Shown here in pieces: positions 2,689 through 41,851 of a stretch of 64,000 nucleotides of DNA (the stretch's first letter is position 1; every line of letters begins with the position of its first letter). Under the pieces are notes generated by a model. The model made no database searches, was not told where the DNA came from, and worked only from the letters and a program-made list of their open reading frames with translations. The stretch is from an uncultured Clostridia bacterium. Its GTDB lineage: Bacteria; Bacillota; Clostridia; TANB77; CAG-465. Location of the stretch: the NCBI GenBank assembly GCA_944388585.1, contig CALXJI010000003.1:79360-143359 (forward strand), in the 5' to 3' direction. The translations under genes were made by a program, and so were the position numbers.

Positions 2689-5292
2689 TTAATCTAATTT
2701 TTCTTTTAATTTATATAATACTTCTAAAGCATCTTTAGGTGTTAATTCATCTAAATTTATTTTTTCAAGCATACTTGTAACTTCTGCCATTTTATAATTA
2801 AACATATCTACCTGTACTTCCTCTGTTGTTATTTTCTTTCTCTTTTCGTCTATTGTCTTTTTAGCCAAATCTACATTTTCAAGATATTTTAATATTTCTT
2901 TAGCACGTGATATTACACTTCTTTTAATTCCTGCAAGTTTAGCTACATATATTCCATATGATTCATCTGCACCACCTGGTGTTATTTTTCTTAAGAAAAT
3001 AACATCATCGCCTTTTTCTTTTACTTCAACCGAATAATTTTTTACTCCTTCAATTTTACTTTCAAGTTCAATAAGTTCATGATAGTGTGTTGCAAATAAT
3101 GTTTTGGCGCCAATTTTTTCTTTATCTGCTATATATTCAACTGTAGCCCATGCAATAGCAAGTCCATCATATGTAGATGTTCCTCTTCCTATCTCATCTA
3201 ATATTATAAGACTATTTTTAGTTGCATTTTCTAATATATTAGATAGCTCTTGCATTTCAACCATAAATGTAGATTGCCCCATAGCTAAATCATCTGATGC
3301 ACCAATTCTAGTAAATATTCTATCAACAATTGATATTTTAGCACTGTCTGCTGGTACAAAGCATCCAAGTTGAGCCATATATGTAATTAATGCAACCTGT
3401 CTCATATATGTAGATTTACCAGCCATATTAGGGCCTGTAATTATTAAAAATCTATCAGATTCGTTATTTAAATATGAATCATTTGGTATAAATTGCTCAT
3501 TTTTTAAAGCTTTTTCAACAACTGCATGTCTTCCGTTTTTTATATCTATAACACCATCTTGTGTTATTTCAGGTTTTACATATTTATTATTTACTGCAAC
3601 AGTTGCAAAAGAACATAGTACATCAAGAATTGATACTATAGATGCAGTTTTTTGTATTCTAATTACTTGTTGTGCTACTTCTTCCCTTATTCTACAAAAT
3701 AAATCGTACTCAACATCCACAAGTTTTTCTTTTGCACCAAGTATTTTTTCTTCTATTTCTTTTAATTCTTCTGTAACATATCTTTCTGCACCAGCAAGTG
3801 TTTGCTTACGTATATATCTATCTTCTGGTACTTGATTTTTATATGCATTTGTTACTTCAATGTAATAACCAAATACTCTATTATATCCTATTCTTAGCCA
3901 CTTTCCTTTTATTCCTGTACGCTCTTTTTCCTTAGCTTCAAGTTCCATAAGCCACTCTTGTCCTTTAGAAGACGCCATTCTGTATTCATCTACTTGTTTA
4001 CTAAATCCATCCTTTATTATTCCGCCCTCTTTTATAGTAACACCAGCATCTTCTACTATAGCTTTATCTATTAATGTATATACATCTTCTAAAGTATCAA
4101 TAGTTTCTAAGAATTCTGTAAAATATTCGTCTTTAGTTTCATTTGAAATTTTTTCTAATAATTTTTTTAGTTGTGGTAATTTCATTAATGAATTTTTAAG
4201 TGAAGTTAATTCTCTTGCATTTACGCTTCCACCTACAACTTTAGAAATTAATCTTTCAATATCATATACAGATTTTAGTATTTCCTTAAGCTCATCTCTA
4301 TATATATTACTCTTATATAATACATCTACTGCGTTTTGACGTTTTTTTATCTCATCAATATTTAAAAGAGGAGATTCAAGCCAATGTCTTAGTGCTCTTC
4401 CTCCCATTGCAGTAACTGTTTCATCTAGCACCCATAAAAGACTACCTTTTTTTGTTTTTTCTCTGTTTGCTTCTAATATTTCAAGATTTTTACGAGTTGT
4501 TGTATCTAGTTGCATATATTTTTCTATTTCATACTTTTCTATATTATTAATTTGCTCTATAGAACCCTTTTGTGTATCTTCTACATAATTTAATAATAAA
4601 GTAGCTGCAACATCTTCTAGTTTAGATAGTTCTATGTCTTTATTTAACACAATTTTATTTAACAGTTCATTTTTTACTTCATTATTATATGTACTAACAT
4701 ATATATTGAAAATTTTATTAAATTGTTTTAAAAAAATAGCATTTTCTTTTGTTGAATCTGAAAGTATAATCTCAGATGGAGCAATTCTTGAAATTTCATT
4801 TAATATTTTTGTATTTACATCTACCCCTTTAACGCTAGAGATAAAAAACTCTCCTGTAGATATATCACAAAAAGAAATTGCACATTCTTTTCTTTCCATA
4901 TAAATACATGCAATATAATTATTCTTTTTTTCATCAAGCATTGTTAAGTCTGTAATAGTTCCAGGAGTTACAATCTTTACAACATCTCTTTTAACTATTC
5001 CCTTAGCATATCTTGGATCTTCTAATTGTTCACAAATAGCTACTTTATATCCCTTCTCTATAAGCTTAGGAATATAGGTGTTTATTGCATGATGTGGAAT
5101 GCCACACATTGGAGCTCTTTCTTCAAGTCCACAATCTTTGCCAGTCAAAGTAAGCTCTAACTCTTTACTAACAGTTATAGCATCATCAAAAAACATTTCA
5201 TAAAAATCACCAAGTCTATAAAATAAAATACAATCTTTATATTTTTCTTTTGTGTCTAAATAATTTTGCATCATTGGTGTAACTGTAGCCAT
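2689..5292 (-). CDS. mutS: DNA mismatch repair protein MutS
   Basis: 867 aa; N-terminus MQNYLDTKEKYKDCILFYRLGDFYEMFFDDA; Walker A GPNMAGKST; lies upstream of mutL. Confidence 0.95.
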   Translation of the reverse strand: MATVTPMMQNYLDTKEKYKDCILFYRLGDFYEMFFDDAITVSKELELTLTGKDCGLEERAPMCGIPHHAINTYIPKLIEKGYKVAICEQLEDPRYAKGIVKRDVVKIVTPGTITDLTMLDEKKNNYIACIYMERKECAISFCDISTGEFFISSVKGVDVNTKILNEISRIAPSEIILSDSTKENAIFLKQFNKIFNIYVSTYNNEVKNELLNKIVLNKDIELSKLEDVAATLLLNYVEDTQKGSIEQINNIEKYEIEKYMQLDTTTRKNLEILEANREKTKKGSLLWVLDETVTAMGGRALRHWLESPLLNIDEIKKRQNAVDVLYKSNIYRDELKEILKSVYDIERLISKVVGGSVNARELTSLKNSLMKLPQLKKLLEKISNETKDEYFTEFLETIDTLEDVYTLIDKAIVEDAGVTIKEGGIIKDGFSKQVDEYRMASSKGQEWLMELEAKEKERTGIKGKWLRIGYNRVFGYYIEVTNAYKNQVPEDRYIRKQTLAGAERYVTEELKEIEEKILGAKEKLVDVEYDLFCRIREEVAQQVIRIQKTASIVSILDVLCSFATVAVNNKYVKPEITQDGVIDIKNGRHAVVEKALKNEQFIPNDSYLNNESDRFLIITGPNMAGKSTYMRQVALITYMAQLGCFVPADSAKISIVDRIFTRIGASDDLAMGQSTFMVEMQELSNILENATKNSLIILDEIGRGTSTYDGLAIAWATVEYIADKEKIGAKTLFATHYHELIELESKIEGVKNYSVEVKEKGDDVIFLRKITPGGADESYGIYVAKLAGIKRSVISRAKEILKYLENVDLAKKTIDEKRKKITTEEVQVDMFNYKMAEVTSMLEKINLDELTPKDALEVLYKLKEKLD

Positions 5293-5552
5293 TATTTTGC
5301 CCCCTTAAAACAAAGATAATTATATCAAAAAATGTTGAAAAAATCAATAAAATATATTTTTGCAAAAAAGAAGTCTAAAAGAAAATTTAATATAAATATT
5401 CCTATTTTTTCTTGACTATTATTATATAATTAAATAAATTAGATAATAAATTTATAAAAATTTAAAATTTTATTATTTTATTATTTTTTTGTTATCTTTT
5501 TTATTTTTTATCGTTATATTAAATGTAAAGTTTATTTATGGAAGGAGGAGCT

Positions 5553-6077
5553 ATGAGTATTGAATATTTAGTAGAAAAATATACAAATTTAATATATAAA
5601 ATATGCTATGATATGCTCAATTCTTCTCCTGATGCACAAGACTTATCTCAAGAAGTATTTTTAAGCTTTTATTTACATTTAGAAGAATATATAAATTTAC
5701 CGGAAAATGATATAAAAAATATACTTTGTAAAATAGCACTAAACAAATGTAAAGACTTTTTAAAAAGTAAGTCATATAAATTAAAATTACTTACAAATGA
5801 CGATAGTACAGAACTTGAAAAATATGAAGAAGATAATAATATACTTGAAGAAATAATAAAAAAAGAAGAGGAAAATTATATACAAAAAATAATAAATGGT
5901 CTAAAAGAACCATATAACAACATCTTATACTTATATTATTTAAAAAGTTTTACATTAGATGAAATTAGTGATAAGCTAAATATACCAAAGCCTACTTTAA
6001 AAGTACAACTTTACAGAGGTAAGAAAATACTTAAAAATACAATAGAAATTGATAATGGAGGTGGTTATATATCATGA
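5553..6077 (+). CDS. ECF-type RNA polymerase sigma factor (sigma-70 family); alternative in-frame ATG at 5538
   Basis: Region 2 (DLSQEVFLSFY) and region 4 (TLDEISDKLNIPKPTLKVQLYRGKKILK) helix-turn-helix; SD GGAAGGAGG precedes the 5553 ATG; stop overlaps start of the next gene (ATGA). Confidence 0.75.
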   Translation: MSIEYLVEKYTNLIYKICYDMLNSSPDAQDLSQEVFLSFYLHLEEYINLPENDIKNILCKIALNKCKDFLKSKSYKLKLLTNDDSTELEKYEEDNNILEEIIKKEEENYIQKIINGLKEPYNNILYLYYLKSFTLDEISDKLNIPKPTLKVQLYRGKKILKNTIEIDNGGGYIS

Positions 6078-6478
6078 AGGAAGTAGAAAAAAATGAACAA
6101 TTAGATATAATAAATACAATTTTAAATGATGATAAAGCTTTCAATACTTATATAAATAGTATAGAAAAAGATATTGATATAAAAACACCAGATAATCTAG
6201 AAAATAACATTTTAAATTATATTAAAAATAACAAATCTCAAAATATAGAAAAACAAAATTCTAAAGTCAAAAAGTTTAAACCAATTGATATATTAAAAAT
6301 CGCTGCGTGCACTATACTTTCTGTGTTATTATGGCAAGCTATGTCACTGCCACCAGAAAGCGTTATGTCCCAAAATGAAGAGCCACAAACATACTTTACC
6401 ATTAACACAAACGATTTTTATAGAAAGATTAATCAATTTATGTTTAAACAGATAAATATAGAAAGGGGAGATAAATAA
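6074..6478 (+). CDS. putative membrane-anchored anti-sigma factor
   Basis: Translationally coupled to the sigma factor gene; single TM helix ILKIAACTILSVLLWQAM; small size typical of ECF anti-sigma factors. Confidence 0.5.
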   Translation: MKEVEKNEQLDIINTILNDDKAFNTYINSIEKDIDIKTPDNLENNILNYIKNNKSQNIEKQNSKVKKFKPIDILKIAACTILSVLLWQAMSLPPESVMSQNEEPQTYFTINTNDFYRKINQFMFKQINIERGDK

Positions 6479-6975
6479 TGAAGAAAAATATATTTTTAAC
6501 ATTCTGTTTTAGCTTTGTACCAGGTGCAGGACAAATGTACCAAGGATATATGAAAAGAGGATTATCTATATTAATACTATTTTCTGCTTTTGCCGCAATA
6601 TTTGGAACTATTTCAATTCCTCTTTTTATAATACCACTACCAGTAATATATATATATAGCTTCTTTGATACATTTTATATTAGAAATTCTTTTTCAAAAG
6701 AGGAAAAAATCGAAGATAATTTTATATGGAATGATTTTAATTTAGACTCTGTAAAAAATTCTCTTAATATTTCTAATAACAAAAAATTAATAGGTATTAT
6801 TCTTGTGTTTATAGGACTATATATTATAATTTCCAATATACTACCACAATTATTCTATGATTTAGATTTAAGAATAGTAAGTAATATGCTATATACATTA
6901 AGCTCATATATAACTCCTATTGCAATTGCAGCTTTATCTATAGTTATTGGAATAAAATTAATAGGTAGAAAATAA
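6478..6975 (+). CDS. TM2-domain-like membrane protein
   Basis: PGAGQMYQGYMKRGLSIL motif followed by hydrophobic helices; start overlaps previous stop. Confidence 0.45.
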   Translation: MKKNIFLTFCFSFVPGAGQMYQGYMKRGLSILILFSAFAAIFGTISIPLFIIPLPVIYIYSFFDTFYIRNSFSKEEKIEDNFIWNDFNLDSVKNSLNISNNKKLIGIILVFIGLYIIISNILPQLFYDLDLRIVSNMLYTLSSYITPIAIAALSIVIGIKLIGRK

Positions 6976-6990
6976 TAGGAGGATAAGTAA

Positions 6991-7650
6991 ATGGAAAATA
7001 AAAAAAGAAAAATAATTGGTAGAACAACTTTTGGTATTGCATTAATACTATTTGGTATCTCTTTAGTTATTCAAACACTATTTACTTTAGACATTTTAAA
7101 ATATATCTTAATGCTATGGCCACTAATAATAATTTCACTAGGTATTGAAATTATATACTATTCTAATAAAAATGATATTGAAGTAAAATATGATTTTTGG
7201 GGAATTATTTTAACAGGTATAGTAGTATTCTTTGGAATAATATTTAGCTTGTTTAATTATGGTGTAAATAAAATACTATATAATGATGATGTAATACAAT
7301 ATCTTCAAACACCTAATGAAGATTATATAGATTATTCATTTGATTCTAAATTAAAAATAACTAATATGGATGATTCAACTATTAATATAAAAATAATAGA
7401 AGATGAACAATGTACAGAAACTAAAGTTGTAATGAAATATACTTTAATACCGAAAACTACAGATAATGTACTAGCACTATTTGAAAATGCTGACTCACTA
7501 TATAATTACATTGACATAGATAATTTAGATTCAGATATAGCAACACTTGAAATATTGGATATACCAAGTACATTTGAAGATACAGAAATTGTTATTAATA
7601 CATCATCAAAAGATAATATATTATTAAATGGCAACTTCCATAATCTTTAA
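6991..7650 (+). CDS. LiaF-like / cell-wall-stress membrane protein (N-terminal TM region, C-terminal soluble domain)
   Basis: N-terminal pattern TTFGIALILFGISLVIQ..WPLIIISLGIEIIY resembles the LiaF/LiaI TM region; last gene of the sigma/anti-sigma operon. Confidence 0.4.
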   Translation: MENKKRKIIGRTTFGIALILFGISLVIQTLFTLDILKYILMLWPLIIISLGIEIIYYSNKNDIEVKYDFWGIILTGIVVFFGIIFSLFNYGVNKILYNDDVIQYLQTPNEDYIDYSFDSKLKITNMDDSTINIKIIEDEQCTETKVVMKYTLIPKTTDNVLALFENADSLYNYIDIDNLDSDIATLEILDIPSTFEDTEIVINTSSKDNILLNGNFHNL

Positions 7651-7694
7651 CTATACAAAAGAATTGCTCTAGAAAAATCTAGAGCTTTTCTTTT

Positions 7695-8180
7695 TTATAA
7701 CATAAAATTCACAATAATTATTGTTGATATAACTGCTGCTAAATCTCCAATAAGTCCAGCTATAATTACTATTTTCAAATCTTTTATTTTTACTTTACTA
7801 GACAAAATAGAAATTACATATAACGTTGTTTCGGTAGATGCCATAAGTATTGATGCTACAAGACCAATAAAAGTGTCAGGTCCTATATTTTTAAAAATAT
7901 CTACTACTATAGATGTTGATGCTCCACCAGATAATGGCTTCATTAGTATTAAAGGAAGTAAATTTCCTGTTATTCCAAATATAGAAATATTTTCAAGTAT
8001 TTTTGTATCATTTATAAGACCAGAAATTATAGTTATTGCAAATATATAGGGAAATATATTATATACTGTTTTTAATCCTTCTTTTGCTCCCTCTATAAAT
8101 AATGAGTATACGTTTCTTCTTTCAAAAATTCCAACTATTATTATAATTAAAATAAATAATGGTACAATATAATTACTCAT
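7695..8180 (-). CDS. spmB: spore maturation protein B (nucleoside-recognition/Gate domain)
   Basis: 161 aa; FIEGAKEGLKTVYNIFPY...LMKPLSGGASTSIVVD...GPDTFIGLVASILMASTETTLYV closely parallels B. subtilis SpmB. Confidence 0.85.
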   Translation of the reverse strand: MSNYIVPLFILIIIIVGIFERRNVYSLFIEGAKEGLKTVYNIFPYIFAITIISGLINDTKILENISIFGITGNLLPLILMKPLSGGASTSIVVDIFKNIGPDTFIGLVASILMASTETTLYVISILSSKVKIKDLKIVIIAGLIGDLAAVISTIIIVNFML

Positions 8181-8748
8181 AATATCTCCACATTATTCTC
8201 AAAGATATAAGTGCTACTATAAGTGAAATAACTGATACACTTATAACCGGTAAAATAATTTCACTTGGATTTTGTGAGTTATATAAAGTCCTAAGTGATA
8301 TCATACTAGTTGGTATTATTTGCATTGAAGCTGTATTTAAAACTATAAAAGTCGCCATAGATCTATTTAATTTTTTCTTATCTCTATTATTTTTTTGAAG
8401 CTCTTCTATACCTTTTAAACTGTTTACTGTCGCTGCATTTCCCACTCCCATCAAATTTGAAATTATATTTAAACTAATATATTCTTTTGCTTTCTCACTT
8501 ACTTCTTCCTTTTTAAATAAAAACGAAAAGAAATTATATACTTTTTTAGCAAATTTACTTAAAAAACTACAGTTAGACAATATATTAAACATACCACTCC
8601 AAAATATTAACATACTTGCAATAACAAATATGTTTTCTATCGCTCCTTTTGAGCTATTAGAAATAGATTCCACAACAACTTGTGGACTTAAGAAAATACA
8701 TGAAAAAACTATACATATTATTAAAAAAGTAGACCATATAAAAGACAT
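8173..8748 (-). CDS. spmA: spore maturation protein A
   Basis: MSFIWSTFLII..NLMGVGNAATVNSLKGIEELQ..RSMATFIVLNTASMQIIPTSMISLR parallels B. subtilis SpmA; SD GAGGTG before the internal ATG at 8748 (the longest ORF extends to 8793); overlaps spmB. Confidence 0.8.
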   Translation of the reverse strand: MSFIWSTFLIICIVFSCIFLSPQVVVESISNSSKGAIENIFVIASMLIFWSGMFNILSNCSFLSKFAKKVYNFFSFLFKKEEVSEKAKEYISLNIISNLMGVGNAATVNSLKGIEELQKNNRDKKKLNRSMATFIVLNTASMQIIPTSMISLRTLYNSQNPSEIILPVISVSVISLIVALISLRIMWRYYE

Positions 8749-8849
8749 ATTACACCTCACTAGATTATATGTCTTATTTTTTAATCTATTCAATATGTAT
8801 AATTGAAAAAAGTTTATATAATAATATATAATTATATAAGGTGAAATAA

Positions 8850-9524
8850 ATGAGTAAAAATCTATTTTTTGATGTTGGTAGAACTCTATTATATCCTAAG
8901 ACTCAAAATTGGTTTATACCACCAAATTATAACAATATACTAAATAATGTAACATTAAAGGAGTTAAAAAAATCTACTGAAAAACATAAGTACTTGTTAG
9001 ATGAACGACATATAAATACTGAGGAAGAAGAATTTGAGATGTTTTCAAAATTTTATTTATATGTATTAAAAGATCTAAATTACCCTGATATAAATCAACA
9101 AGTTATACAAAATCTCGCATACGACTGCGTATATAATGATGATAAATTTATATTTTATAAAGAAGTAAAAGATGAACTAATAAGTTTATCTAAAAATTAT
9201 AATTTATATGTTATATCTGATGCATGGCCATCAACATATAGAATATTAAAAAATTATGGTATTTTTGATCTATTTAAAAATGTATTTATATCATCTGACT
9301 TAGGATTTAAAAAATCTGATAAAACTCTTTTTGAAATAGCACTTGAAAAAATACCTTCTACCGATGAAAATTTCTTTATTGACGATAGATATGATTTACT
9401 TAAAATTTCCGAAAGTTATGGCTTTATTCCAATAATCATAGATAGAGATGATAATAAATTAACAAATTATATAGAAATAAATAACTTAACTCATTTAAAT
9501 GAATTACTAAATTACTATAAATAA
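8850..9524 (+). CDS. HAD-superfamily hydrolase
   Basis: Motif I FFDVGRTLL, later VISDAWPST, SDLGFKKSD and FIDD motifs typical of haloacid-dehalogenase-like hydrolases. Confidence 0.6.
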   Translation: MSKNLFFDVGRTLLYPKTQNWFIPPNYNNILNNVTLKELKKSTEKHKYLLDERHINTEEEEFEMFSKFYLYVLKDLNYPDINQQVIQNLAYDCVYNDDKFIFYKEVKDELISLSKNYNLYVISDAWPSTYRILKNYGIFDLFKNVFISSDLGFKKSDKTLFEIALEKIPSTDENFFIDDRYDLLKISESYGFIPIIIDRDDNKLTNYIEINNLTHLNELLNYYK

Positions 9525-9546
9525 AGTCGGACTTAAATCCGACTTT
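9524..9546. terminator. bidirectional intrinsic terminator between convergent genes
   Basis: Stem AAAGTCGG / CCGACTTT with 7-nt loop, flanked by A/T runs, lying between the 9524 and 9545 gene ends. Confidence 0.7.
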
Positions 9547-9994
9547 ATTCTATATAATCTGAAAAATCTATCAATCTATAAGTATATGCCACTTGTATTT
9601 TATTATTACTTTCCCTTTTTCTACTTTCTATTCCACCTGAATTTTCAAGAAATCTTCTCATTTTTTCATTCTTTTCATCACACCAAACAATTAAGCTTCT
9701 ATATCCTCTATCAAATAACTGTTTTTTAGTTTCAAAAAGTACTTCTGAATTTACTGTATCTTTATTTTTTACATTTCTTGTATAAATACCATATATTTCT
9801 GAATCATAATCGTCATCATCAACATCATCTGAACCAAAAAATGTAGCACTCACTATATTATTTTCTTCATTTTCATATACATACAAATACTTATCATCAT
9901 TTTTCATAAATTCTTTTATTTCTTCTTTTGATAATCCTATATTAGGTATCTCTACTATTTTATCTATATCGTTTACATTTGCTCTTCTATACAT
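9545..9994 (-). CDS. GNAT-family N-acetyltransferase (putative)
   Basis: 149 aa; C-terminal RGYRSLIVWCDEKNEKMRRFLENSGG resembles the GNAT motif A/B region. Confidence 0.45.
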   Translation of the reverse strand: MYRRANVNDIDKIVEIPNIGLSKEEIKEFMKNDDKYLYVYENEENNIVSATFFGSDDVDDDDYDSEIYGIYTRNVKNKDTVNSEVLFETKKQLFDRGYRSLIVWCDEKNEKMRRFLENSGGIESRKRESNNKIQVAYTYRLIDFSDYIE

Positions 9995-35117: not shown

Positions 35118-35891
35118 TTAATATCTTTTTTTACCCAAATCTATTCTTAAATTATCAAAATTTAAATCATATTTTCTAGTAGAATATTTATATAGTTCAT
35201 TTATTCTTTCCAGTTTTTGTTCTTTTGTTGTTCCTTCTTCTATTGCATTAAAAAATAGTTGTATAAAATTCTTTTCAGGAATTTTCTTATGTTGTGCTAA
35301 TTGTAATCTCTCATTTGTATACAATTTGTATATTTTTGTTTGTGACAAATTTGAAAAGCCATTTAATTTATGATAAAAATCTCTTATTCTTTCAACTGTT
35401 AAAAAATAATAATTTTCAAAATAAGGATCATTTTGTATTCTTAATTCATTTAAAGCTAAAACTGCTTTATGAATTCCTGCAATCTGATATATTGCCTCAT
35501 GTTTTGTATAACATGGTAATGGTCTGGAATATTTCTCTTTTATATATGCTACTAAGTCTGAAATTTTTCCATTTCTATCAAATATTACTTCACCATATCC
35601 AATCATTGATAATAATGAATCTTCACATTTCATATAATCTGAATTTGCACGTTCATAAATTTTTGATATTGTTCTTTCAAAATACTCTACTTGTATTCCA
35701 TTAACATTTTTATATCCTTTTATTTGATTTGTGTCTGAATCATCATCATACAATATCATTAAATCTATGTCTGAAAACTCATTTGCTGTTTGAGTATGAT
35801 AGCTACCATAAAAGATTATACCTTCTACTTCTTCATTTTTTAAATAATTCATATCATCTATAAATTTATTTAAAGCATCTCTATAATTCAT
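35118..35891 (-). CDS. nucleotidyltransferase-domain protein (Pol-beta superfamily, KNTase/ANT-like two-domain architecture)
   Basis: GSYHTQTANEFSDIDLMILYDDDSD (G[SG]..9-13 DhD) NTase motif plus a helical C-terminal domain; SD GAGGTG before the internal ATG at 35891 (the ORF extends to 35972). Confidence 0.55.
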   Translation of the reverse strand: MNYRDALNKFIDDMNYLKNEEVEGIIFYGSYHTQTANEFSDIDLMILYDDDSDTNQIKGYKNVNGIQVEYFERTISKIYERANSDYMKCEDSLLSMIGYGEVIFDRNGKISDLVAYIKEKYSRPLPCYTKHEAIYQIAGIHKAVLALNELRIQNDPYFENYYFLTVERIRDFYHKLNGFSNLSQTKIYKLYTNERLQLAQHKKIPEKNFIQLFFNAIEEGTTKEQKLERINELYKYSTRKYDLNFDNLRIDLGKKRY

Positions 35892-36014
35892 AAAACACCT
35901 CAAAAAAATCCAATAGAAATTTTTATAATTTCTACTGGACATAATTATACCATATAATATTACTTTTTTCAATACTACAAAGATAATATTTTACATAAAT
36001 TAATTTCATAACTA

Positions 36015-36176
36015 TTTAATTTTTATTTTTATTCTTTTATGATCGATTTTCATATCTTCTATTTCTATTTCTTTAAGCTCTGCAGGTGAATCATCTATAT
36101 TGCCAGAATATATAATATCTTCATTCTGATAAATATCAACATCATAACATCTTATATCTTTAATCCACATAAATAT
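36015..36176 (-). CDS. small hypothetical ORF (53 aa) below the ORF-track cut-off
   Basis: MWIKDIRCYDVDIYQNEDIIYSGNIDDSPAELKEIEIEDMKIDHKRIKIKIK; ends 4 nt before the ylbF-like gene start. Confidence 0.25.
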
Positions 36177-36179
36177 CAC

Positions 36180-36527
36180 CTAAAACTTTACCAACTCTTC
36201 TATTGCTTCACCCATTGATTTTTGTAAATCTGCTAATATTATATTTATTTTCATTTCACATTCTAAAATTTTTCTACAATCATCATTTTGAATTACAATA
36301 GAATATAAATTTTCCATCTCTTGTTGTTTTTCTTTAGAAATATCTTTACCATTTAAATAACTAATTTGTACTTCATTTTGCTTCTCTTTAAAGTCTTTTA
36401 ACATGTTATATACTTCATTATTCTTTTTTAAATTTTCTTTTAAATCTAAATATTCTTTATACTCTTGAGTTTCTTTAAAAGATTCAACAAGTTTATTAAT
36501 ATTTTCATGAAAATTCATTAATATCAT
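36180..36527 (-). CDS. YlbF/YmcA (YheA, UPF0342) family regulator
   Basis: 115 aa; helical pattern ESFKETQEYKEYLDLKENL..MLKDFKEKQNEVQ..ECEMKINIILADLQKSMGEAIEEL collinear with the B. subtilis YheA/YmcA family. Confidence 0.55.
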   Translation of the reverse strand: MILMNFHENINKLVESFKETQEYKEYLDLKENLKKNNEVYNMLKDFKEKQNEVQISYLNGKDISKEKQQEMENLYSIVIQNDDCRKILECEMKINIILADLQKSMGEAIEELVKF

Positions 36528-36581
36528 CCTTTCTTTAGGATAATATTATATAACATTTTGATTATTTTTTAAACACTTTAT

Positions 36582-37274
36582 TTAAATTTCATCTAAACTA
36601 CTACAAATATCATATTGTGTTTTTGTAAGCTTTTGTTTTCTAACATTTACTAACTCCGTTATATTTTGAATTATATTATTCTCATTTATACAATCATTAT
36701 TAAAATTCACCTTATATTTTAACTTATTTAATTTATTAGCTATTTCTTTTATCTGTCTTAAATCAAAATTATCATATGCATCATACCAATCATTACACAA
36801 TTCCTTAAAGTCATCTACTTTATTCATACATTTTTCAACATTCAAATCTATTTTCTTTTTAAATTCTGTACTTGAAATAAAGCTTTTTAAATCTCCAAAA
36901 AAATCATCTATATAATTATAAAATATATTTCCATATTTTTTTGTTGTACTAACTATATCTATTCCAATGTTGATACAATTAGATAAGCCTCCCTTAAATG
37001 CAGCTTCCACCATTTTATTAATTTCACTAATATTTTTTTCTGGTACTCCTGCTATTTCAAGGCCTTCTTTTATACTACTTGTAAGTGCAGTATTCAATAT
37101 TTTTAAAAAATCTCCCTGTTTTAATACTTTCTTTACATCAATTAAAACCTCTTTAATATGTTCATTTACTGGCATTCCTTTAATAACATAATTTGCACCT
37201 TTATCTATTATATTTAATATTATATTCATAAGTTCTTCTTTATTCTTTTCTACTTCTAAATCTTCTTTTTGCAT
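36582..37274 (-). CDS. hypothetical soluble protein (230 aa), third gene of the ATPase operon
   Basis: No recognisable motif; 2-nt gap to the upstream ATPase gene. Confidence 0.3.
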   Translation of the reverse strand: MQKEDLEVEKNKEELMNIILNIIDKGANYVIKGMPVNEHIKEVLIDVKKVLKQGDFLKILNTALTSSIKEGLEIAGVPEKNISEINKMVEAAFKGGLSNCINIGIDIVSTTKKYGNIFYNYIDDFFGDLKSFISSTEFKKKIDLNVEKCMNKVDDFKELCNDWYDAYDNFDLRQIKEIANKLNKLKYKVNFNNDCINENNIIQNITELVNVRKQKLTKTQYDICSSLDEI

Positions 37275-37276
37275 TT

Positions 37277-38404
37277 TTACTCCTCCTCTATATTAATTAA
37301 TTTATATATTATTTCATTTCTTACTTTTTCAAATTTAATAACTCCAATTGATTTTAATAGTTTTTTTAAATTATATCTTATATAAATTTTTTTGCCCGTC
37401 AATATATATTTATCTATAAAAAAACTATCTTTTATTACACCATATATGATTATATCTAATTTATTTTCAATTACTTTTATTAGTTCTTTTTTTCCTTTAA
37501 ATTTATTTATTATAAATTTACTTTTCCTTAATAGCCTTTCGTCTATAAATCTTGTTTCACTAGCAAATTCTCTTATCATACTTTTAAAAAATTGTATGCA
37601 AAAAATATATTCTACATTTAATTCTTCAAAAATATTATACATACTATTTAGCATAACTGTAGAAGTATCTACAATTACATAGTCATAATAATTACTAAAA
37701 TATACTAATAAATCAATTATATTTTTATTTTTTATAATAGGAATACTTTTAGAATTTAAAATATACTTAATATTATTGCTTTTTATATTATTGCTCTGAT
37801 AGCTTATCAAATCTTTTATATCTTCTTTTTTTATATCTTCTATTAAATTATTTAAGCCATAGTTTTTATCACTACTAACATATAAATCAAGGCATGGATA
37901 TATAAAATCAAAATCTAATATTATAACATTTTTATTTGTATTTTTTACTATTTCTTCCGAAAGAATTCTACAAAGAATTGTTTTACCAGATTTTCTTAAT
38001 CCTGTAACAATAAAAATATTACTTTTATTTTGACTCTTTTTATATATAATCATCTTAGGATTATTTATATTTTCTAATATTTCATCAAAAGAAATGTAAT
38101 TTCCTACAATAATATTAAAAATTTCTTTAGCAAATAATTTTTCTTTCATTTCTTTATTTAAATCACTTAATATTACAACTATTCTATTCTTACTATTTTT
38201 ATCTTTTATAGTATATAAATACTCTATAAAGTCCACTTTTCCTTTTACTTTATCTCTTGTTATTACAATTATTTCTTCTTCAAAAGTGATACTCTTTAAA
38301 ACCTGTTCTTTAGTTGAAAATATGAATATTTCATACTTATTTATGTACATATTTTTTATTTTATCTTCTAAATATTTATTATTCAATGCTATTATCATTT
38401 TCAT
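37277..38404 (-). CDS. P-loop NTPase, ParA/MinD/CpaE(TadZ)-like fold, with N-terminal receiver-like region
   Basis: Canonical Walker A GLRKSGKT at aa ~135, Walker B-like VIILDFD, then YVIVDTST as in ParA-type ATPases; ~120-aa N-terminal extension. Confidence 0.45.
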   Translation of the reverse strand: MKMIIALNNKYLEDKIKNMYINKYEIFIFSTKEQVLKSITFEEEIIVITRDKVKGKVDFIEYLYTIKDKNSKNRIVVILSDLNKEMKEKLFAKEIFNIIVGNYISFDEILENINNPKMIIYKKSQNKSNIFIVTGLRKSGKTILCRILSEEIVKNTNKNVIILDFDFIYPCLDLYVSSDKNYGLNNLIEDIKKEDIKDLISYQSNNIKSNNIKYILNSKSIPIIKNKNIIDLLVYFSNYYDYVIVDTSTVMLNSMYNIFEELNVEYIFCIQFFKSMIREFASETRFIDERLLRKSKFIINKFKGKKELIKVIENKLDIIIYGVIKDSFFIDKYILTGKKIYIRYNLKKLLKSIGVIKFEKVRNEIIYKLINIEEE

Positions 38405-39929
38405 TTAAAATTATCCTTTCATATTCATTAGCACTAATTACTATAGGAGCTTTATTGTTTGATATAGATAATATTGCTTCACCTTTTTGTAGATTACTTA
38501 TATTAAATTCTGATAAATCAATAAAACTACTTAAATTCTCTACATCCTTATATACCATTTTAAAAATAAGTTTAAACGACGAATTATTTAATATACTTTT
38601 TGCAAAAATTCCATTATCATATGTAAAAAAATCATTTATATCTTGAGTTATTGTAATAATAGAAGCACGTCTTTTTCTAATTGTTTTATACATATTTGAT
38701 ATACTTAATAAAAGTTGTTTACTTTGAGCATATTTCCACATTTCATCTATATATATAATAGTATTCTTTCCGTCTAAATAGCTATTTACTATATTATTTA
38801 AGACATATGAAATAATAGTAGAATCACTATTAAAATAATTAACATCAAATATGTATAAATTTTTTTCTAATGATATATTAGTTTTATCTGAAAAGAATTT
38901 AATATTAGATTTTATTTTATCATCCAATAATTTTTTTAAATATTTATCCTCAACAGTTTCAACTAAATCTTTTAATGTAGGAAATTTATCATAATTTATA
39001 ATGGTACTATCTAAGCATATCTTGCCATCTTCTTCTGTTTTTAAAATAGTGTTAATGTCTTCAGTTATATTAAATTTAAAATATATATCTTTTATTTTAA
39101 GTTTTAAATATTCAATATATATCTTTTCAATACCACATATTTCTACTAAAAAATTTATCACTTTTTTTATTTTTTCATCTAAAAAGCTTTTATCATTTAT
39201 ATTTTTTAAATCATTTTTGGTTATTTGTAATAAATTAAAATAACAACCATCTGTTATTATCTGCCCCTCAAGTTGATTACAAAGATAAAAATATTCTTTC
39301 TCAATATCTAAAACAATCTGATTTATATTTTTAAAAAAATTTCTTATAATATTTAGCTTAACAAAATAAGATTTTCCACTGCCACTACTTCCAAAAATAC
39401 ACATATTTGAATTTTCATATTTATTAGAAAATATATCTAATATACATATTTTATTATCTAATTTAGTATATCCTATAAAAACCCCATTTATATCTACAAA
39501 ATTACTACTAATATATGGAAATAAATTAGTTAATACGCTACTTGTAACAAATAAGTTATAGTTAATTTCTTTTTTTATTGGTAAATTCAAAAGATAATAA
39601 TCTAATTGTCTAAAATTAGTAATCTCTGAAATAAAATTTTTAGAATAAAGTTTAGATTTAAAACTTGACAAAATATTTAATAAATTTACTATATTATCTG
39701 AATAAAACGTTAAAGTTATATTTAAATTATATATTTCTTGATTTTCAATTTGAATTTTTCTTCTAAGTTCTTTTGCCTCTTTAGATGTCCTATCTATAAT
39801 ATCTATATTACTTTGATTTTCTTTAATAGTATGCTTTTCACTCTCAGACCTTCCAATGGTATATGAAATGTCATTTAAGACCTTATATGCATCTAATTTT
39901 TTTATATATAAAGACATGTCATAATCCAC
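38379..39929 (-). CDS. VirB4/TrsE/HerA-superfamily (AAA_10/DUF87) ATPase, C-terminal ATPase portion; in-frame open extension continues to 40091 with no canonical start
   Basis: Walker A FGSSGSGKSYF; motif IVLDIEKEYFYL..EGQII (compare VirB4 DPEGEY..GG); arginine-finger/sensor RKRRASIITITQDINDF (VirB4/HerA RK..TQ..D). ORF-track start is GTG at 39929; the 50 codons upstream are stop-free in 25%-GC DNA. Confidence 0.6.
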   Translation of the reverse strand: MDYDMSLYIKKLDAYKVLNDISYTIGRSESEKHTIKENQSNIDIIDRTSKEAKELRRKIQIENQEIYNLNITLTFYSDNIVNLLNILSSFKSKLYSKNFISEITNFRQLDYYLLNLPIKKEINYNLFVTSSVLTNLFPYISSNFVDINGVFIGYTKLDNKICILDIFSNKYENSNMCIFGSSGSGKSYFVKLNIIRNFFKNINQIVLDIEKEYFYLCNQLEGQIITDGCYFNLLQITKNDLKNINDKSFLDEKIKKVINFLVEICGIEKIYIEYLKLKIKDIYFKFNITEDINTILKTEEDGKICLDSTIINYDKFPTLKDLVETVEDKYLKKLLDDKIKSNIKFFSDKTNISLEKNLYIFDVNYFNSDSTIISYVLNNIVNSYLDGKNTIIYIDEMWKYAQSKQLLLSISNMYKTIRKRRASIITITQDINDFFTYDNGIFAKSILNNSSFKLIFKMVYKDVENLSSFIDLSEFNISNLQKGEAILSISNNKAPIVISANEYERIILNENDNSIE

Positions 39930-40075
39930 AGCTTTATCTATGGCATTTATTAAATCTAAGAAAAAAATATATTCAGGTAAAGAAGTAATATGTAAAGAAG
40001 CTATATATTTATTATCTACTACAACATATCTTAAATTAGTATTATCTATATAATCTGGTAAAACTTCATTTATGT

Positions 40076-40627
40076 CTATAATATCACCTCTTTATTAATT
40101 GTCTCATACATCAAAAATTGTAGTTTTTCCTTAGACATTATTCTTTTTGTATTACATCCAATATTATCTATTCTTCTTATTAAATTATCTATATTATTAA
40201 TATCATAGTCAGAATCACTTTTAAAAGATATTACTAAATAAAATTTTGTTGTATAGATTTTCTCATTTTCTAATTGCTTACTTATACTTGAAATATAATT
40301 ATTTACATGACTTAAATATCTCTTACTTCCATTCTTATTTATACATATCTTAAGATTTGATATATACTTATCAATATTTATTTTTTTATTTGATATAAAA
40401 ATTTGAAATTCTAAATTAAATTCACGAAGAAACTCACCATATAGATTTAAAATATTTGATTGAACGTCTATTGAAAAATTTAAAAAAGTAACAGGCTCTA
40501 CTTCATAAATATATACTTTTTTTACGAAATCTTTTTCTTTTATTAATATATATTTATCTGTAATATTTATAAGATTAAATATTTCATTTACATCTGCATA
40601 TTTTATATTTATCCCTCCATTTCTTAA
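40076..40627 (-). pseudogene. ORF resembling a VirB4 N-terminal domain, with no ATG/GTG/TTG start; possibly the frameshifted 5' part of the ATPase gene
   Basis: Stop-free 183-codon frame (..ADVNEIFNLINITDKYILIKEKDFVKKVYIYEVEPVTFLNFSIDVQS..) bounded by TAA at 40628 and TAG at 40076. SD GGAGGG is followed by ATA AAT ATA; the only nearby ATG is out of frame (MQM*). The frame is +1 relative to the downstream ATPase frame and overlaps it by 16 nt. Confidence 0.4.
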
Positions 40628-40690
40628 TTAAAACTTATACCATCATTTTCTTATAACGTCAATATTTTTTTACTGATTTTTTATCGCAAC

Positions 40691-40704
40691 TTTCGACACT
40701 ATAA
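40691..40704 (+). promoter_or_regulatory. Spo0A-box (TTCGACA = TGTCGAA on the opposite strand) abutting a TATAAT -10
   Basis: TTTCGACACTATAAT about 75 nt upstream of the 40778 operon; part of the repeat TCGCAA-N-TTTCGACA. Confidence 0.4.
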
Positions 40705-40777: not shown

Positions 40778-40933
40778 ATGAATGATAATAATATCAATAA
40801 AAAATTAATGGACGTATTAGGCTCTTTAGATAAAGATAAAATAGAGCAAGTAACAAAAATGGTTCAAAATATGTCTAGTGAAGATCTAAACAATATTGCA
40901 AAAATGCTAGGGGTAAATAACAAGAACAAATAA
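40778..40933 (+). CDS. small hypothetical protein (51 aa)
   Basis: SD TAGGAGATG; MNDNNINKKLMDVLGSLDKDKIEQVTKMV..; first gene of a three-gene + strand operon. Confidence 0.4.
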   Translation: MNDNNINKKLMDVLGSLDKDKIEQVTKMVQNMSSEDLNNIAKMLGVNNKNK

Positions 40934-40934
40934 T

Positions 40935-41300
40935 ATGAATGATGATAATAAAGATGCTTTAAATAATCTTATTAATAGCATTCAAGAAAAAATGAATGGT
41001 AATGAAAGCAGTCAAAAAGAAGAAAATAATGGCTCATTTGATTTGTCTTCAATATTAAATGCCTTCAATCAAAGTAAAGAAGAAAATAGTAATAATACTG
41101 AATCTTCTTTTGATCCTTCGCTTCTTTTAAAAATTCAAAAAATAATTAGTAGTATGAATAACAATAATCCTAAAAAGGATTTACTGCTTTCTTTAAAACC
41201 TTTTCTTAGAAAATCTAGACAAGACAAAATGAATGAATATCTAACCATTTTAAATGTTATATCTGCTTTAGAAGCTTTTAAAAATAAGGATAGTGATTAA
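40935..41300 (+). CDS. hypothetical protein (121 aa), possibly sporulation-related
   Basis: 2-nt gap from the previous gene; low-complexity N/S-rich N-terminus, helical C-terminus. Confidence 0.4.
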   Translation: MNDDNKDALNNLINSIQEKMNGNESSQKEENNGSFDLSSILNAFNQSKEENSNNTESSFDPSLLLKIQKIISSMNNNNPKKDLLLSLKPFLRKSRQDKMNEYLTILNVISALEAFKNKDSD

Positions 41301-41302
41301 AT

Positions 41303-41728
41303 ATGTATTATTATAATTATAATCCATTTTATATGCGCAATAGAAACTATTATTATAATAGAAATATGCAAAATATATCAGAAAATGTTGAAAGTGAAAA
41401 AAAAGATACTGAATCACAACAAAGTGATACAATATCCTTTCAAAAATTCTACAATAATAATGCCAATCCAAACTGTGATAACACTATTAACGAAAGTGAA
41501 GAAAAAATACACACTAATAATTCTACTAAAAAAAGAAATAATAAGTTTATTTCATTTGATAGAACACAAATAAATTTGTTAGGCTTCACCTTTGAAATAG
41601 ATGATTTAATAATAATAGGAATAATCATATTATTACTATTGGAATCAGATGAAAATTATGCATTAATTATTATATTAGGATTAATTTTATTAAATGTAAA
41701 TTTAAGTGATATTCTTAATATTTTCTAA
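41303..41728 (+). CDS. hypothetical Tyr/Asn-rich protein with C-terminal TM helices (141 aa)
   Basis: MYYYNYNPFYMRNRNYYYNR low-complexity start; C-terminal LIIIGIIILLLLE..IIILGLILL hydrophobic segments. Confidence 0.4.
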   Translation: MYYYNYNPFYMRNRNYYYNRNMQNISENVESEKKDTESQQSDTISFQKFYNNNANPNCDNTINESEEKIHTNNSTKKRNNKFISFDRTQINLLGFTFEIDDLIIIGIIILLLLESDENYALIIILGLILLNVNLSDILNIF

Positions 41729-41851
41729 ATAATATTTTGTAAGTAATACATCTATTTCTTCACTCGTTTTTAATATCTGCTCGTATGAACAATTTTCTTC
41801 AATTTCTTTGTCTAATTTTTGTTTTAAAAACTCGATCTCATTAGTTATCAT
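41702..41851 (-). CDS. Spo0E-like sporulation regulatory phosphatase family protein (49 aa), not in the ORF track
   Basis: MITNEIEFLKQKLDKEIEENCSYEQILKTSEEIDVLLTKYYLENIKNIT fits the Spo0E-like helix-loop-helix (IE.LR..L...; S.ELD.LI..Y); SD AAGAGGAG; TTGACT-17-TATAAA promoter and a Spo0A box upstream. Confidence 0.5.
   Translation of the reverse strand: MITNEIEFLKQKLDKEIEENCSYEQILKTSEEIDVLLTKYYLENIKNIT

Follow-up and report, generated by a model that had tools for sequence, protein, structure and literature searches.

The locus studied here raises a simple question: why does what looks like a gene for a VirB4 ATPase lie in two adjacent reading frames, neither of which opens with a canonical start codon? 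The two frames belong to an operon at positions 36582 to 40627 of a 64,000-nucleotide (nt) stretch of contig CALXJI010000003.1 from an uncultured Clostridia bacterium (assembly GCA_944388585.1); this whole stretch is referred to as the window. VirB4 is a signature protein of conjugation and of type IV secretion systems (T4SS). A preliminary description of the DNA, made from the sequence alone, offered three explanations: a VirB4-like gene broken by a frameshift and decaying, programmed frameshifting plus non-AUG initiation, or sequencing errors at two places. Non-AUG initiation is the only part of these that our analysis supports. We conclude that the locus is very probably an intact, vertically inherited operon encoding a naturally split VirB4 ATPase, whose two pieces (genes A and B) start at AUA codons, together with two partner proteins (genes C and D).

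Reading frames and start codons

The four genes of the operon, and two small elements within its first half, are as follows:

40076..40606, minus strand: gene A, 176 codons from ATA (40604-40606) to TAG (40076-40078); predicted stand-alone N-terminal piece of VirB4 (TraC-like / TrsD-TraD-like)
38379..40079, minus strand: gene B, 566 codons from ATA (40077-40079) to TAA; predicted VirB4-type ATPase without the first ~180 residues
37277..38404, minus strand: gene C, 375 amino acids (aa); pseudo-receiver plus MinD/ParA-fold NTPase; 26-nt overlap of its start (ATG) with the end of B
36582..37274, minus strand: gene D, 230 aa; all-alpha protein of 10 helices, family-less
40083..40093, minus strand: extended Shine-Dalgarno (SD) sequence AAAGAGGTGAT of gene B, inside the last codons of A (..N-K-E-V-I-L*), with its GAGG core 7 nt before the ATA
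40588..40599, minus strand: mini open reading frame (ORF) ATG CAG ATG TAA, overlapping codons 3-6 of A in another frame, 13 nt from the SD

Most of what had been reported about the frames was reproduced. The 516-aa GTG ORF is present at 38379-39929 (minus strand) and its frame stays open further upstream, to 40091, giving 570 stop-free codons in total with the first ATG, GTG or TTG at codon 54. The second stop-free frame, of 183 codons, lies at 40076-40627 (minus strand) and has its first canonical start at codon 163. The two frames overlap by 16 nt and each is preceded by a strong SD followed by ATA/ATT codons (GGAGGG at 40613-40618; AAAGAGGTGAT at 40083-40093). The out-of-frame mini-ORF, encoding MQM*, is also present. 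The offset between the frames had been given as +1 and is in fact -1 (equivalently +2) for the downstream frame relative to the upstream one: on the minus strand the codons of A lie at 40078+3k and those of B at 40079+3k. The ATA at 40077-40079 overlaps the TAG stop of gene A at 40076-40078 by two bases, forming ATAG. Start and stop codons overlapping as ATGA are a common arrangement, and ATAG is its exact analogue.

Among all long frames in the 64-kb window, A and B are the only ones that look coding, have no canonical start and carry a strong SD with ATA behind it. The apparent AUA starts are specific to these two genes and are not a general habit of the genome. Reassignment of TAG or an alternative genetic code was ruled out: frame A ends with TAG followed by TAA, and the other genes read normally with table 11.

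To compare the starts we used related loci (designated by L numbers), of which a scan of genome contigs gave at least 19 and a metagenome scan gave 3. The start of gene A in ten species reads GGAGGG(G), 6-7 nt, then AUH-AAA-UAY, with ATA as the start codon in seven species, ATT in two, ATC in one and ATG in none of the ten. In the window the ATA lies 6 nt behind GGAGGG (40613-40618, minus strand). Two species deviate from the general pattern: in L002, GAGG, 7 nt and AUA precede AAA-AAC-AAA-UAU, and in L029 the AUC precedes AUU-CAU. An upstream ATG or TTG inside the SD region of A is in frame in only 3 of the 10 species (L020, L028 and L024) and elsewhere is out of frame or separated by a stop, so it cannot be a conserved start. 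For gene B, all species of the clade retain the SD AA[AG]GAGGT[GA].., and the ATAG overlap with the stop of A is found in eight (the window, L001, L020, L028, L022, L024, L025 and L029). The nearest canonical codon downstream of the ATA of B (ATG in L024, TTG in L025) has no SD of its own. A conserved AUH start at optimal SD spacing, with no canonical alternative, is what the alignments indicate for A in ten species and for B in eight.

Equivalents of the mini-ORF, of the form ATG-NNN-NTN-TAA (MVM*, MKI*, MKV*), occur in 8 of the 10 species and are absent from L025 and L002. We rejected MQM* as a regulatory upstream ORF because of this absence and its distance from the SD; the conserved residues K-Y-G/E-D/N-V/I probably give rise to it incidentally.

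In Staphylococcus aureus, Ribo-Ret has identified conserved AUA/AUU starts at infC, ccpN and cvfC1, all with an extended SD, and a lineage-restricted AUA start at citZ; near-cognate AUH starts with an extended SD are a documented attenuation device in Firmicutes that is sensitive to initiation factor 3 (IF3) (PMC13009471). Genes A and B resemble the known AUA/AUU-start genes (infC, ccpN and cvfC1 in S. aureus and Bacillus subtilis; infC and pcnB in Escherichia coli) in having an AUH codon behind an extended SD, conserved across species. They differ in being two adjacent genes of one operon, the second of which has a start overlapping the upstream stop and may thereby combine coupling with attenuation.

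We propose that gene A is initiated at the AUA 6 nt behind GGAGGG in an SD-driven manner, and that gene B would be initiated at the AUA overlapping the UAG of A (AUAG), 7 nt behind the GAGG core of the extended SD AAAGAGGUGAU. Protein B would then come from an SD-assisted start at a near-cognate codon, coupled to the translation of A, with no frameshifting involved. The AUA starts would hold A and B low, stoichiometrically linked and IF3-sensitive. We regard this mechanism of start-codon use and expression as well supported by the comparison among species. It would be a rare case of two consecutive genes with conserved near-cognate starts, one of them fused to the upstream stop, and a natural test bed for the interplay of extended SD, termination-reinitiation and IF3 proofreading in Firmicutes.

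One alternative is that A and B are joined by programmed -1 frameshifting or stop bypass near 40076-40093 into a VirB4 of ~740 aa, with AAAGAGGTGAT as the stimulator. Internal SD-like sequences are known to stimulate frameshifting (prfB, dnaX), and the junction does have a -1 overlap with a conserved SD-like element just upstream; in addition, A and B are complementary VirB4 halves, and in L026 they lie in the same frame with one TAA between them. Several features of the junction argue the other way. Two consecutive TAA codons shut frame B four codons ahead of the ATA, which confines any shift to GAG GUG AUA UUA, where re-pairing would be poor. This 4-codon stretch open in both frames contains no slippery heptamer X XXY YYZ, and no hairpin or pseudoknot was found downstream at the junction, where the RNA is less structured than shuffled controls (z = +1.56). 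Furthermore, the frame relation between A and B varies: it is -1 with ATAG in the window clade, +1 with its own SD and an ATG in L002, an ATG overlap in L003, a 60-nt gap in L005, and the same frame after TAA-ATG in L026. These varying relations argue against a conserved recoding event. Stand-alone proteins of ~180 aa and ~560 aa are moreover the rule in the family, and TrsD/TraD and TrsE/TraE are two separate proteins. We consider recoding at this junction improbable, and the programmed frameshifting suggested earlier is not borne out. The L026 junction (7990-8010), with a single TAA followed by ATG, is the only one among the relatives where stop read-through would fuse the two proteins.

Another possibility is that only canonical starts are used, with B beginning at GTG 39929 (516 aa) or ATG 39917 (512 aa) and A untranslated or reduced to its last 20 codons. 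Gene callers have picked such starts (P0001, 512 aa; 534-539 aa in relatives), and AUA is inefficient. We estimated the ratio of nonsynonymous to synonymous substitution (dN/dS, Nei-Gojobori) against loci from four species in which B is 72 %, 70 %, 68 % and 52 % identical to the window. This ratio is 0.12-0.27 over the whole of gene A, 0.14-0.26 over B codons 1-54, upstream of any canonical start, and 0.22-0.45 over the remainder of B. The 50-54 upstream codons of B and nearly all of A are thus under purifying selection, contrary to what canonical starts alone would predict. The upstream residues also align one-to-one with homologues that have ATG there: sequenced homologues of B start at the position aligned with window residues ..EV-LPDYIDNTNLRY, and those starting with ATG begin at the aligned position M-LPD-IDNTN. 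The called starts vary (512, 534, 539, 556, 557 aa) and have no SD, whereas strong SDs lie 6-7 nt before the AUH codons. Exclusive use of canonical starts is therefore quite improbable in our estimate. In every species examined the gene callers truncate, extend or mis-start both genes (B at 512-557 aa, A at 146-210 aa), and recognising the AUH starts would correct the annotation of a family with >1000 members.

The two VirB4 pieces and the integrity of the locus

The VirB4 likeness of the larger frame, suggested before from its motifs, holds in hidden Markov model (HMM) searches. Protein B matches the Mbov_0397-family VirB4 model (NCBIfam NF045975) at 6e-50 over positions 309-891 of 894 and the CD1110-family VirB4 model (NF045971) at 1.6e-40 over positions 191-733 of 752. 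It also matches the TraC and VirB4_CagE models (TIGR02746, 4e-25; TIGR00929, 1e-15) and, in Pfam, P-loop_TraG and DUF87. A profile of B and its homologues aligns with PDB 4AG5, the C-terminal domain of VirB4 from Thermoanaerobacter pseudethanolicus, at 1.2e-35 over B residues 191-553. The Walker A motif GSSGSGKS and the other motifs pointed out earlier are confirmed and are invariant among homologues: in 15 of them, with 46-72 % identity, Walker A G230-S237, Walker B D445-E446, R468-K469-R470 and T478-Q479 do not change. Judged by these matches, protein B is a member of the VirB4/TraC/TrbE/TraE superfamily and not of its named equivalog subfamilies; its identity to plasmid-borne VirB4s is at most 25 %. 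A search gave 558 homologues at E<=1e-5, and the best 120 of these 558 are mostly 556-564 aa long.

The assignment of A comes from its relatives. Orthologues at 78-83 % identity (P0122, P0145, P0169) carry a precomputed PF26593 (TraC-like) match, and 13 of 16 A orthologues match the VirB4_plasma model at its N-terminal positions ~103-278 (of 894). More distant orthologues match the CD1110 VirB4 model at positions 1-170 of 752, and distant ones also match NF041427 (TrsD/TraD) at 6e-6 and 3e-5, far below its 200-bit cut-off. Searching with the A profile retrieved 1567 proteins. Every one of the best 120 stands alone, with a length of 146-239 aa, and PF26593 is missing from only three of these 120. 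Gene A with five orthologues gave no match even at E<=10 against a Pfam copy lacking PF26593, and a PDB sequence search with the A profile returned only noise.

The upstream frame had been described as resembling a VirB4 N-terminus, and the orthologues of A indeed cover model parts complementary to those covered by B. A and B appear to be complementary VirB4 pieces because their matches fall at complementary model positions (1-170 and 103-278 versus 191-733 and 309-891). B on its own is not a VirB4 in the sense of a single polypeptide: a different gene, here and in hundreds of relatives, encodes the first ~180 residues. On the evidence of these homologues, the split VirB4, with A (~180 aa) and B (~560 aa) as separate proteins, is ancestral and widespread.

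The closest parallel is the TrsD/TraD plus TrsE/TraE pair of staphylococcal and enterococcal conjugative plasmids (pSK41/pGO1, pIP501), the VirB4 of MPF-FATA with a small partner, where a protein of ~200 aa is likewise encoded upstream of an N-terminally short VirB4. The likeness is drawn through the NF041427 matches of the A orthologues. In contrast to those plasmids, the present locus has no VirB6-, VirB8- or VirB1-like gene, no type IV coupling protein (T4CP) and no relaxase; it is chromosomal, core-genome and vertically inherited, the accompanying genes encode a TadZ-like NTPase and a novel helical protein, and its starts appear to be AUA. With the CD1110 family, Tn916 Orf16, ICEBs1 ConE and pCW3 TcpF (MPF-FA), and with 4AG5, protein B has the ATPase core and motifs in common, and A and B jointly span CD1110 model positions 1 to 733 of 752. 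Those full-length VirB4s are single polypeptides of ~750-830 aa, encoded in integrative and conjugative elements (ICEs) or plasmids with a full transfer apparatus, whereas here there are two proteins.

Are these pieces parts of an intact locus? According to the first explanation listed above, the locus is the decaying remnant of a conjugative element, in which VirB4 was broken by an indel, the start codons were lost and expression has ceased. The missing canonical starts fit such decay, as do the missing T4SS genes, relaxase and integrase, the very low GC content of 19-21 % (23-30 % in the rest of the window) and the splitting of B into two frames in L010. The dN/dS values of 0.12-0.27 in the start-less regions point the other way. 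Counted from the ATA, A has 176 codons in all of five species and B has 566-567, and the catalytic residues are invariant. The promoter, SD and start context are likewise conserved. Gene order in the clade is YqeY, two M16 peptidases, a Spo0E-like gene, three small divergent genes, A, B, C and D, then YlbF, a nucleotidyltransferase, a radical-SAM gene and NUDIX; this synteny is kept from 47 % to 100 % identity. The identities of A to D drop in step with those of the neighbouring housekeeping genes, which argues for vertical descent.

The idea of two sequencing or assembly errors that mask an ordinary ATG and an otherwise single ORF has in its favour that AT-rich, homopolymer-rich sequence is error-prone. 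L027, an independent assembly of the same organism (100 % identity), is however identical at the A-B junction and in the A start region, and nine other species from different studies share the layout. The preliminary description had proposed looking for an intact single gene in related genomes; there we find two separate genes, and in the ten species compared A never starts with ATG. Decay and sequencing error are both rejected on the grounds of purifying selection, synteny with co-divergence and the identical L027 assembly: a decaying remnant is very improbable, the two-gene layout being ancestral, and sequencing error can practically be dismissed.

It had also been noted that no relaxase, coupling protein or integrase lies nearby and that the locus is not an intact ICE. 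We agree on both counts, and the flanks are syntenic housekeeping genes with Pfam calls. Neither the operon, the flanks nor the ten largest other ORFs of the window (MutS, MutL, CysRS and similar genes) contain a VirB3/6/8-like gene, cell-wall hydrolase, T4CP or relaxase, and hydropathy analysis found no transmembrane segments in A, B, C or D.

Several results weigh against an operon with AUA starts and a split VirB4. The window's own protein A has no HMM match in Pfam and NCBIfam searches, and its family assignment leans on orthologues (56-84 % identity) and more distant members. An alignment of the A profile with one streptococcal VirB4 N-terminus by hhalign did cover the expected region (residues 37-161) but, at a probability of 1.5 %, is uninformative. 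The scores of B stay far below the curated VirB4 equivalog cut-offs (170 versus 590 bits; 139 versus 325 bits). Finally, AUA initiation is deduced entirely from conservation, and in E. coli AUA, AUC and AUU starts yield 1-2 % of the AUG output.

Partner genes, upstream region and possible function

The 375-aa protein C had been taken for a ParA-fold ATPase with a receiver-like N-terminal extension, and its AlphaFold2 (AF2) model (pLDDT 88) compared with Foldseek agrees with this. Residues ~1-115 are receiver-like (Spo0F 1NAT, TMt 0.73 over 120 residues) and residues ~128-375 resemble the ParA-family structure 3EA0 (TMt 0.71), followed by MinD and FlhG (~0.63). Walker A residues G135, G140 and K141 and residue D246 are invariant, and D51 at the phospho-acceptor position is not conserved. 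The Walker A sequence GLRKSGKT follows the plain GxxxxGK[ST] pattern and lacks the signature lysine of MinD/ParA. By sequence, no CpaE/TadZ match was found and the window protein gives weak generic P-loop matches only; matches to CbiA (MinD/ParA family) come from the orthologues in L002, L003 and L006. Relatives of gene C number 45 among 1.84 billion representative proteins. From the model, its architecture is of the TadZ/CpaE type, the same two-domain build as in the Tad/Flp pilus proteins, which combine a receiver-like domain lacking a conserved phospho-acceptor with a MinD/ParA fold.

For gene D, the structure model is confidently all-alpha (10 helices, pLDDT 90), and no specific structural or sequence relative was found. 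D accompanies A and B in every related locus containing it, including L009, which has no C.

The relatives outside the clade show how the module varies. L002, L003 and L005 (38-43 % B identity) share the M16-peptidase neighbourhood, and L002 and L003 also keep the trio of small divergent genes. These three loci pair gene C with two extra genes, between C and D, for a CpaF/TadA-like T2SSE ATPase and a TadB/C-like T2SSF platform-like membrane protein (L002, 9953-12035; L003, 9974-12117; L005, 10036-11205; after the TadZ-like gene). The T2SSE belongs to the CpaF/VirB11 family (2e-26 to 2e-27) and the T2SSF is GspF/TadB-like (3.4e-7); in L002 and L003 the T2SSF gene comes after that for the ATPase and before that for the helical protein, and no pilin or prepilin peptidase was seen in these loci. 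A search of the window for CpaF- and TadB-like genes found no T2SSE or T2SSF homologue anywhere in it. Unlike Tad loci, the window is without CpaF, TadB/C, pilin or prepilin peptidase, and a link to VirB4 is not a Tad feature.

At ~30-35 % identity, L006, L009 and L010 have A, B and D between gyrB and gyrA, with C in L006 and L010 and not in L009. This more distant branch of the family (A at ~5.9-6.5 kb of each locus) is thus found within the origin region dnaA-dnaN-recF-gyrB-gyrA. The B gene of L010 is divided between two frames, by either a frameshift or an assembly error. In L004, a Clostridium sp. metagenome-assembled genome (33 % identity), the module at 3133-9772 lies directly after a CI-like HTH-S24 repressor and a tyrosine integrase and before murA, and consists of A (256 aa), B (595 aa) and proteins of 242 and 253 aa. 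L004 is a compact candidate integrative element. Since its module adjoins an integrase and a repressor, at least one distant member of the family would reside in an integrative element. The simplest history would be an origin in a mobile element, then chromosomal fixation, then loss of the second ATPase and the membrane platform in the window's branch.

Upstream of gene A, three features are shared with the syntenic relatives:

40634..40662, minus strand: sigma-A-type promoter with TTGACG (-35), a 17-nt spacer ending in TGg (extended -10) and TATAAG (-10)
40684..40698, minus strand: 15-mer TGTCGAAAGTTGCGA, with the Spo0A-box core TGTCGAA and an inverted 0A-like half-site; candidate operator ~22 nt upstream of the -35
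40778..41728, plus strand: divergent trio of small genes (51, 121 and 141 aa), conserved with the operon

The promoter, TTGAC[GTC]-17 nt-TG[GA]TATAA[AG], is kept in all nine species read. A generic promoter scan passed over it, since that scan accepts only -10 hexamers with T as their sixth base. The sequence TGTCGAAA[CG]TTGCGA is common to nine species (the window/L027, L001, L020, L028, L022, L024, L025, L026 and L029); this conservation holds down to 48 % protein B identity, with one C/G position that varies. The first seven bases of the 15-mer match the Spo0A-box core defined in PMC3485338. Perfect conservation of a 15-mer in an intergenic stretch across ~50 % protein divergence is notable. 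We hypothesize that the operon is under Spo0A control. Transcription would start from the conserved extended -10 sigma-A promoter, and the putative Spo0A-box-like operator upstream suggests control at the entry into stationary phase or sporulation. The 15-mer also faces the divergently transcribed trio.

Orthologues of the trio are 31-98 % identical in L001, L020, L024-L026, L002 and L003. The N-terminus of the 141-aa product is rich in Tyr and Asn (MYYYNYNPFYMRNRNYYYNRN), and its C-terminal part contains two transmembrane helices; the locus has no other membrane segments. The trio proteins have no family match in Pfam, NCBIfam, PADLOC or PHROGs. From co-conservation, the trio may be functionally part of the operon.

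What could such a module do? In our proposal B would act as a motor of the VirB4 type, working as an oligomer, with A as the module that docks it or serves as its adaptor, C as a factor for positioning or assembly and D as a scaffold. Combined, A to D would amount to an ATPase module of T4SS origin that was taken over for a host function. Our working model is a domesticated T4SS-derived module that is positioned by the TadZ-like NTPase and possibly controlled by Spo0A. It is conceivable, although we think it rather doubtful, that this is a core-genome T4SS-derived machine of a family-level low-GC Clostridia clade, perhaps including the trio, switched by Spo0A, dosed by the AUA starts and serving not conjugation but a developmental or envelope task such as sporulation-linked translocation or polar assembly. 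Literature searches covering VirB4 together with TadZ/CpaF or with sporulation and Spo0A, and TraD/TraE of pIP501, turned up no account of this module; one on ATA start codons gave mostly mitochondrial papers, besides eukaryotic and chloroplast ones.

This functional proposal has its own difficulties. No membrane component, channel, hydrolase, coupling protein or relaxase is encoded, which leaves the model weak. The window has 5 0A boxes where 2.4 are expected, a number not significant alone.

A different role, an anti-phage defence or conflict system built on a HerA/VirB4-like ATPase, might be read from the matches of B to the PADLOC model mad8 (7.8e-16) and to HerA models (~1e-5), and from the fast evolution and narrow distribution of the component proteins. 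These PADLOC matches, however, cover the generic P-loop domain only, and A, C and D have none above noise. There is no effector (nuclease, Sir2, TIR). Typical defence islands are patchy and mobile, while this locus has a fixed core-genome position and co-diverges with its neighbours. We find a defence role hard to credit and quite improbable. The identities offered by PHROGs and PADLOC (mad8, HerA, terminase) were rejected as generic P-loop matches.

That a VirB4 is stably kept on the chromosome with neither channel nor coupling protein nor relaxase points to a use of this motor not described so far. Its partner here is TadZ-like, and relatives add an ATPase resembling CpaF and a platform resembling GspF; this pairing also points to an evolutionary bridge between parts of T4SS and of type IV filaments.

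Flanking and downstream features

The remaining features around the operon are the following:

41702..41851, minus strand: 49-aa Spo0E-like gene on the far side of the trio; its orthologues in L024 and L025 have a weak PF09388 (SpoOE-like) match; syntenic
36180-36527, minus strand: YlbF/YmcA-family gene (Pfam Com_YlbF, 3.5e-16), co-oriented downstream of D
36012-36179, minus strand: ORF of ~52 aa, co-oriented downstream of the YlbF/YmcA gene
35908..35940, minus strand: first intrinsic-terminator-like hairpin downstream, with a 14-bp stem and a T-run; one of only two in 35.9-42.1 kb

The Spo0E-like gene and the 0A box hint at a link with sporulation initiation. Gene order on the YlbF side is constant in all syntenic loci. 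A terminator scan found no terminator-like site between gene D and the YlbF/YmcA and ~52-aa genes, and these two may share the operon transcript or have their own promoter.

The window as a whole is part of a low-GC (20-30 %) Firmicutes chromosome with PolC, MutS, MutL and CysRS. The operon, at 36000-40000, is its most AT-rich part (GC 19-20 % versus 23-38 % elsewhere) despite vertical inheritance. The TTG ORF of the nucleotidyltransferase (35118-35972, minus strand, 284 aa) is probably over-extended, with orthologues called at 257-259 aa that start at the M of MNYRDALNKF.

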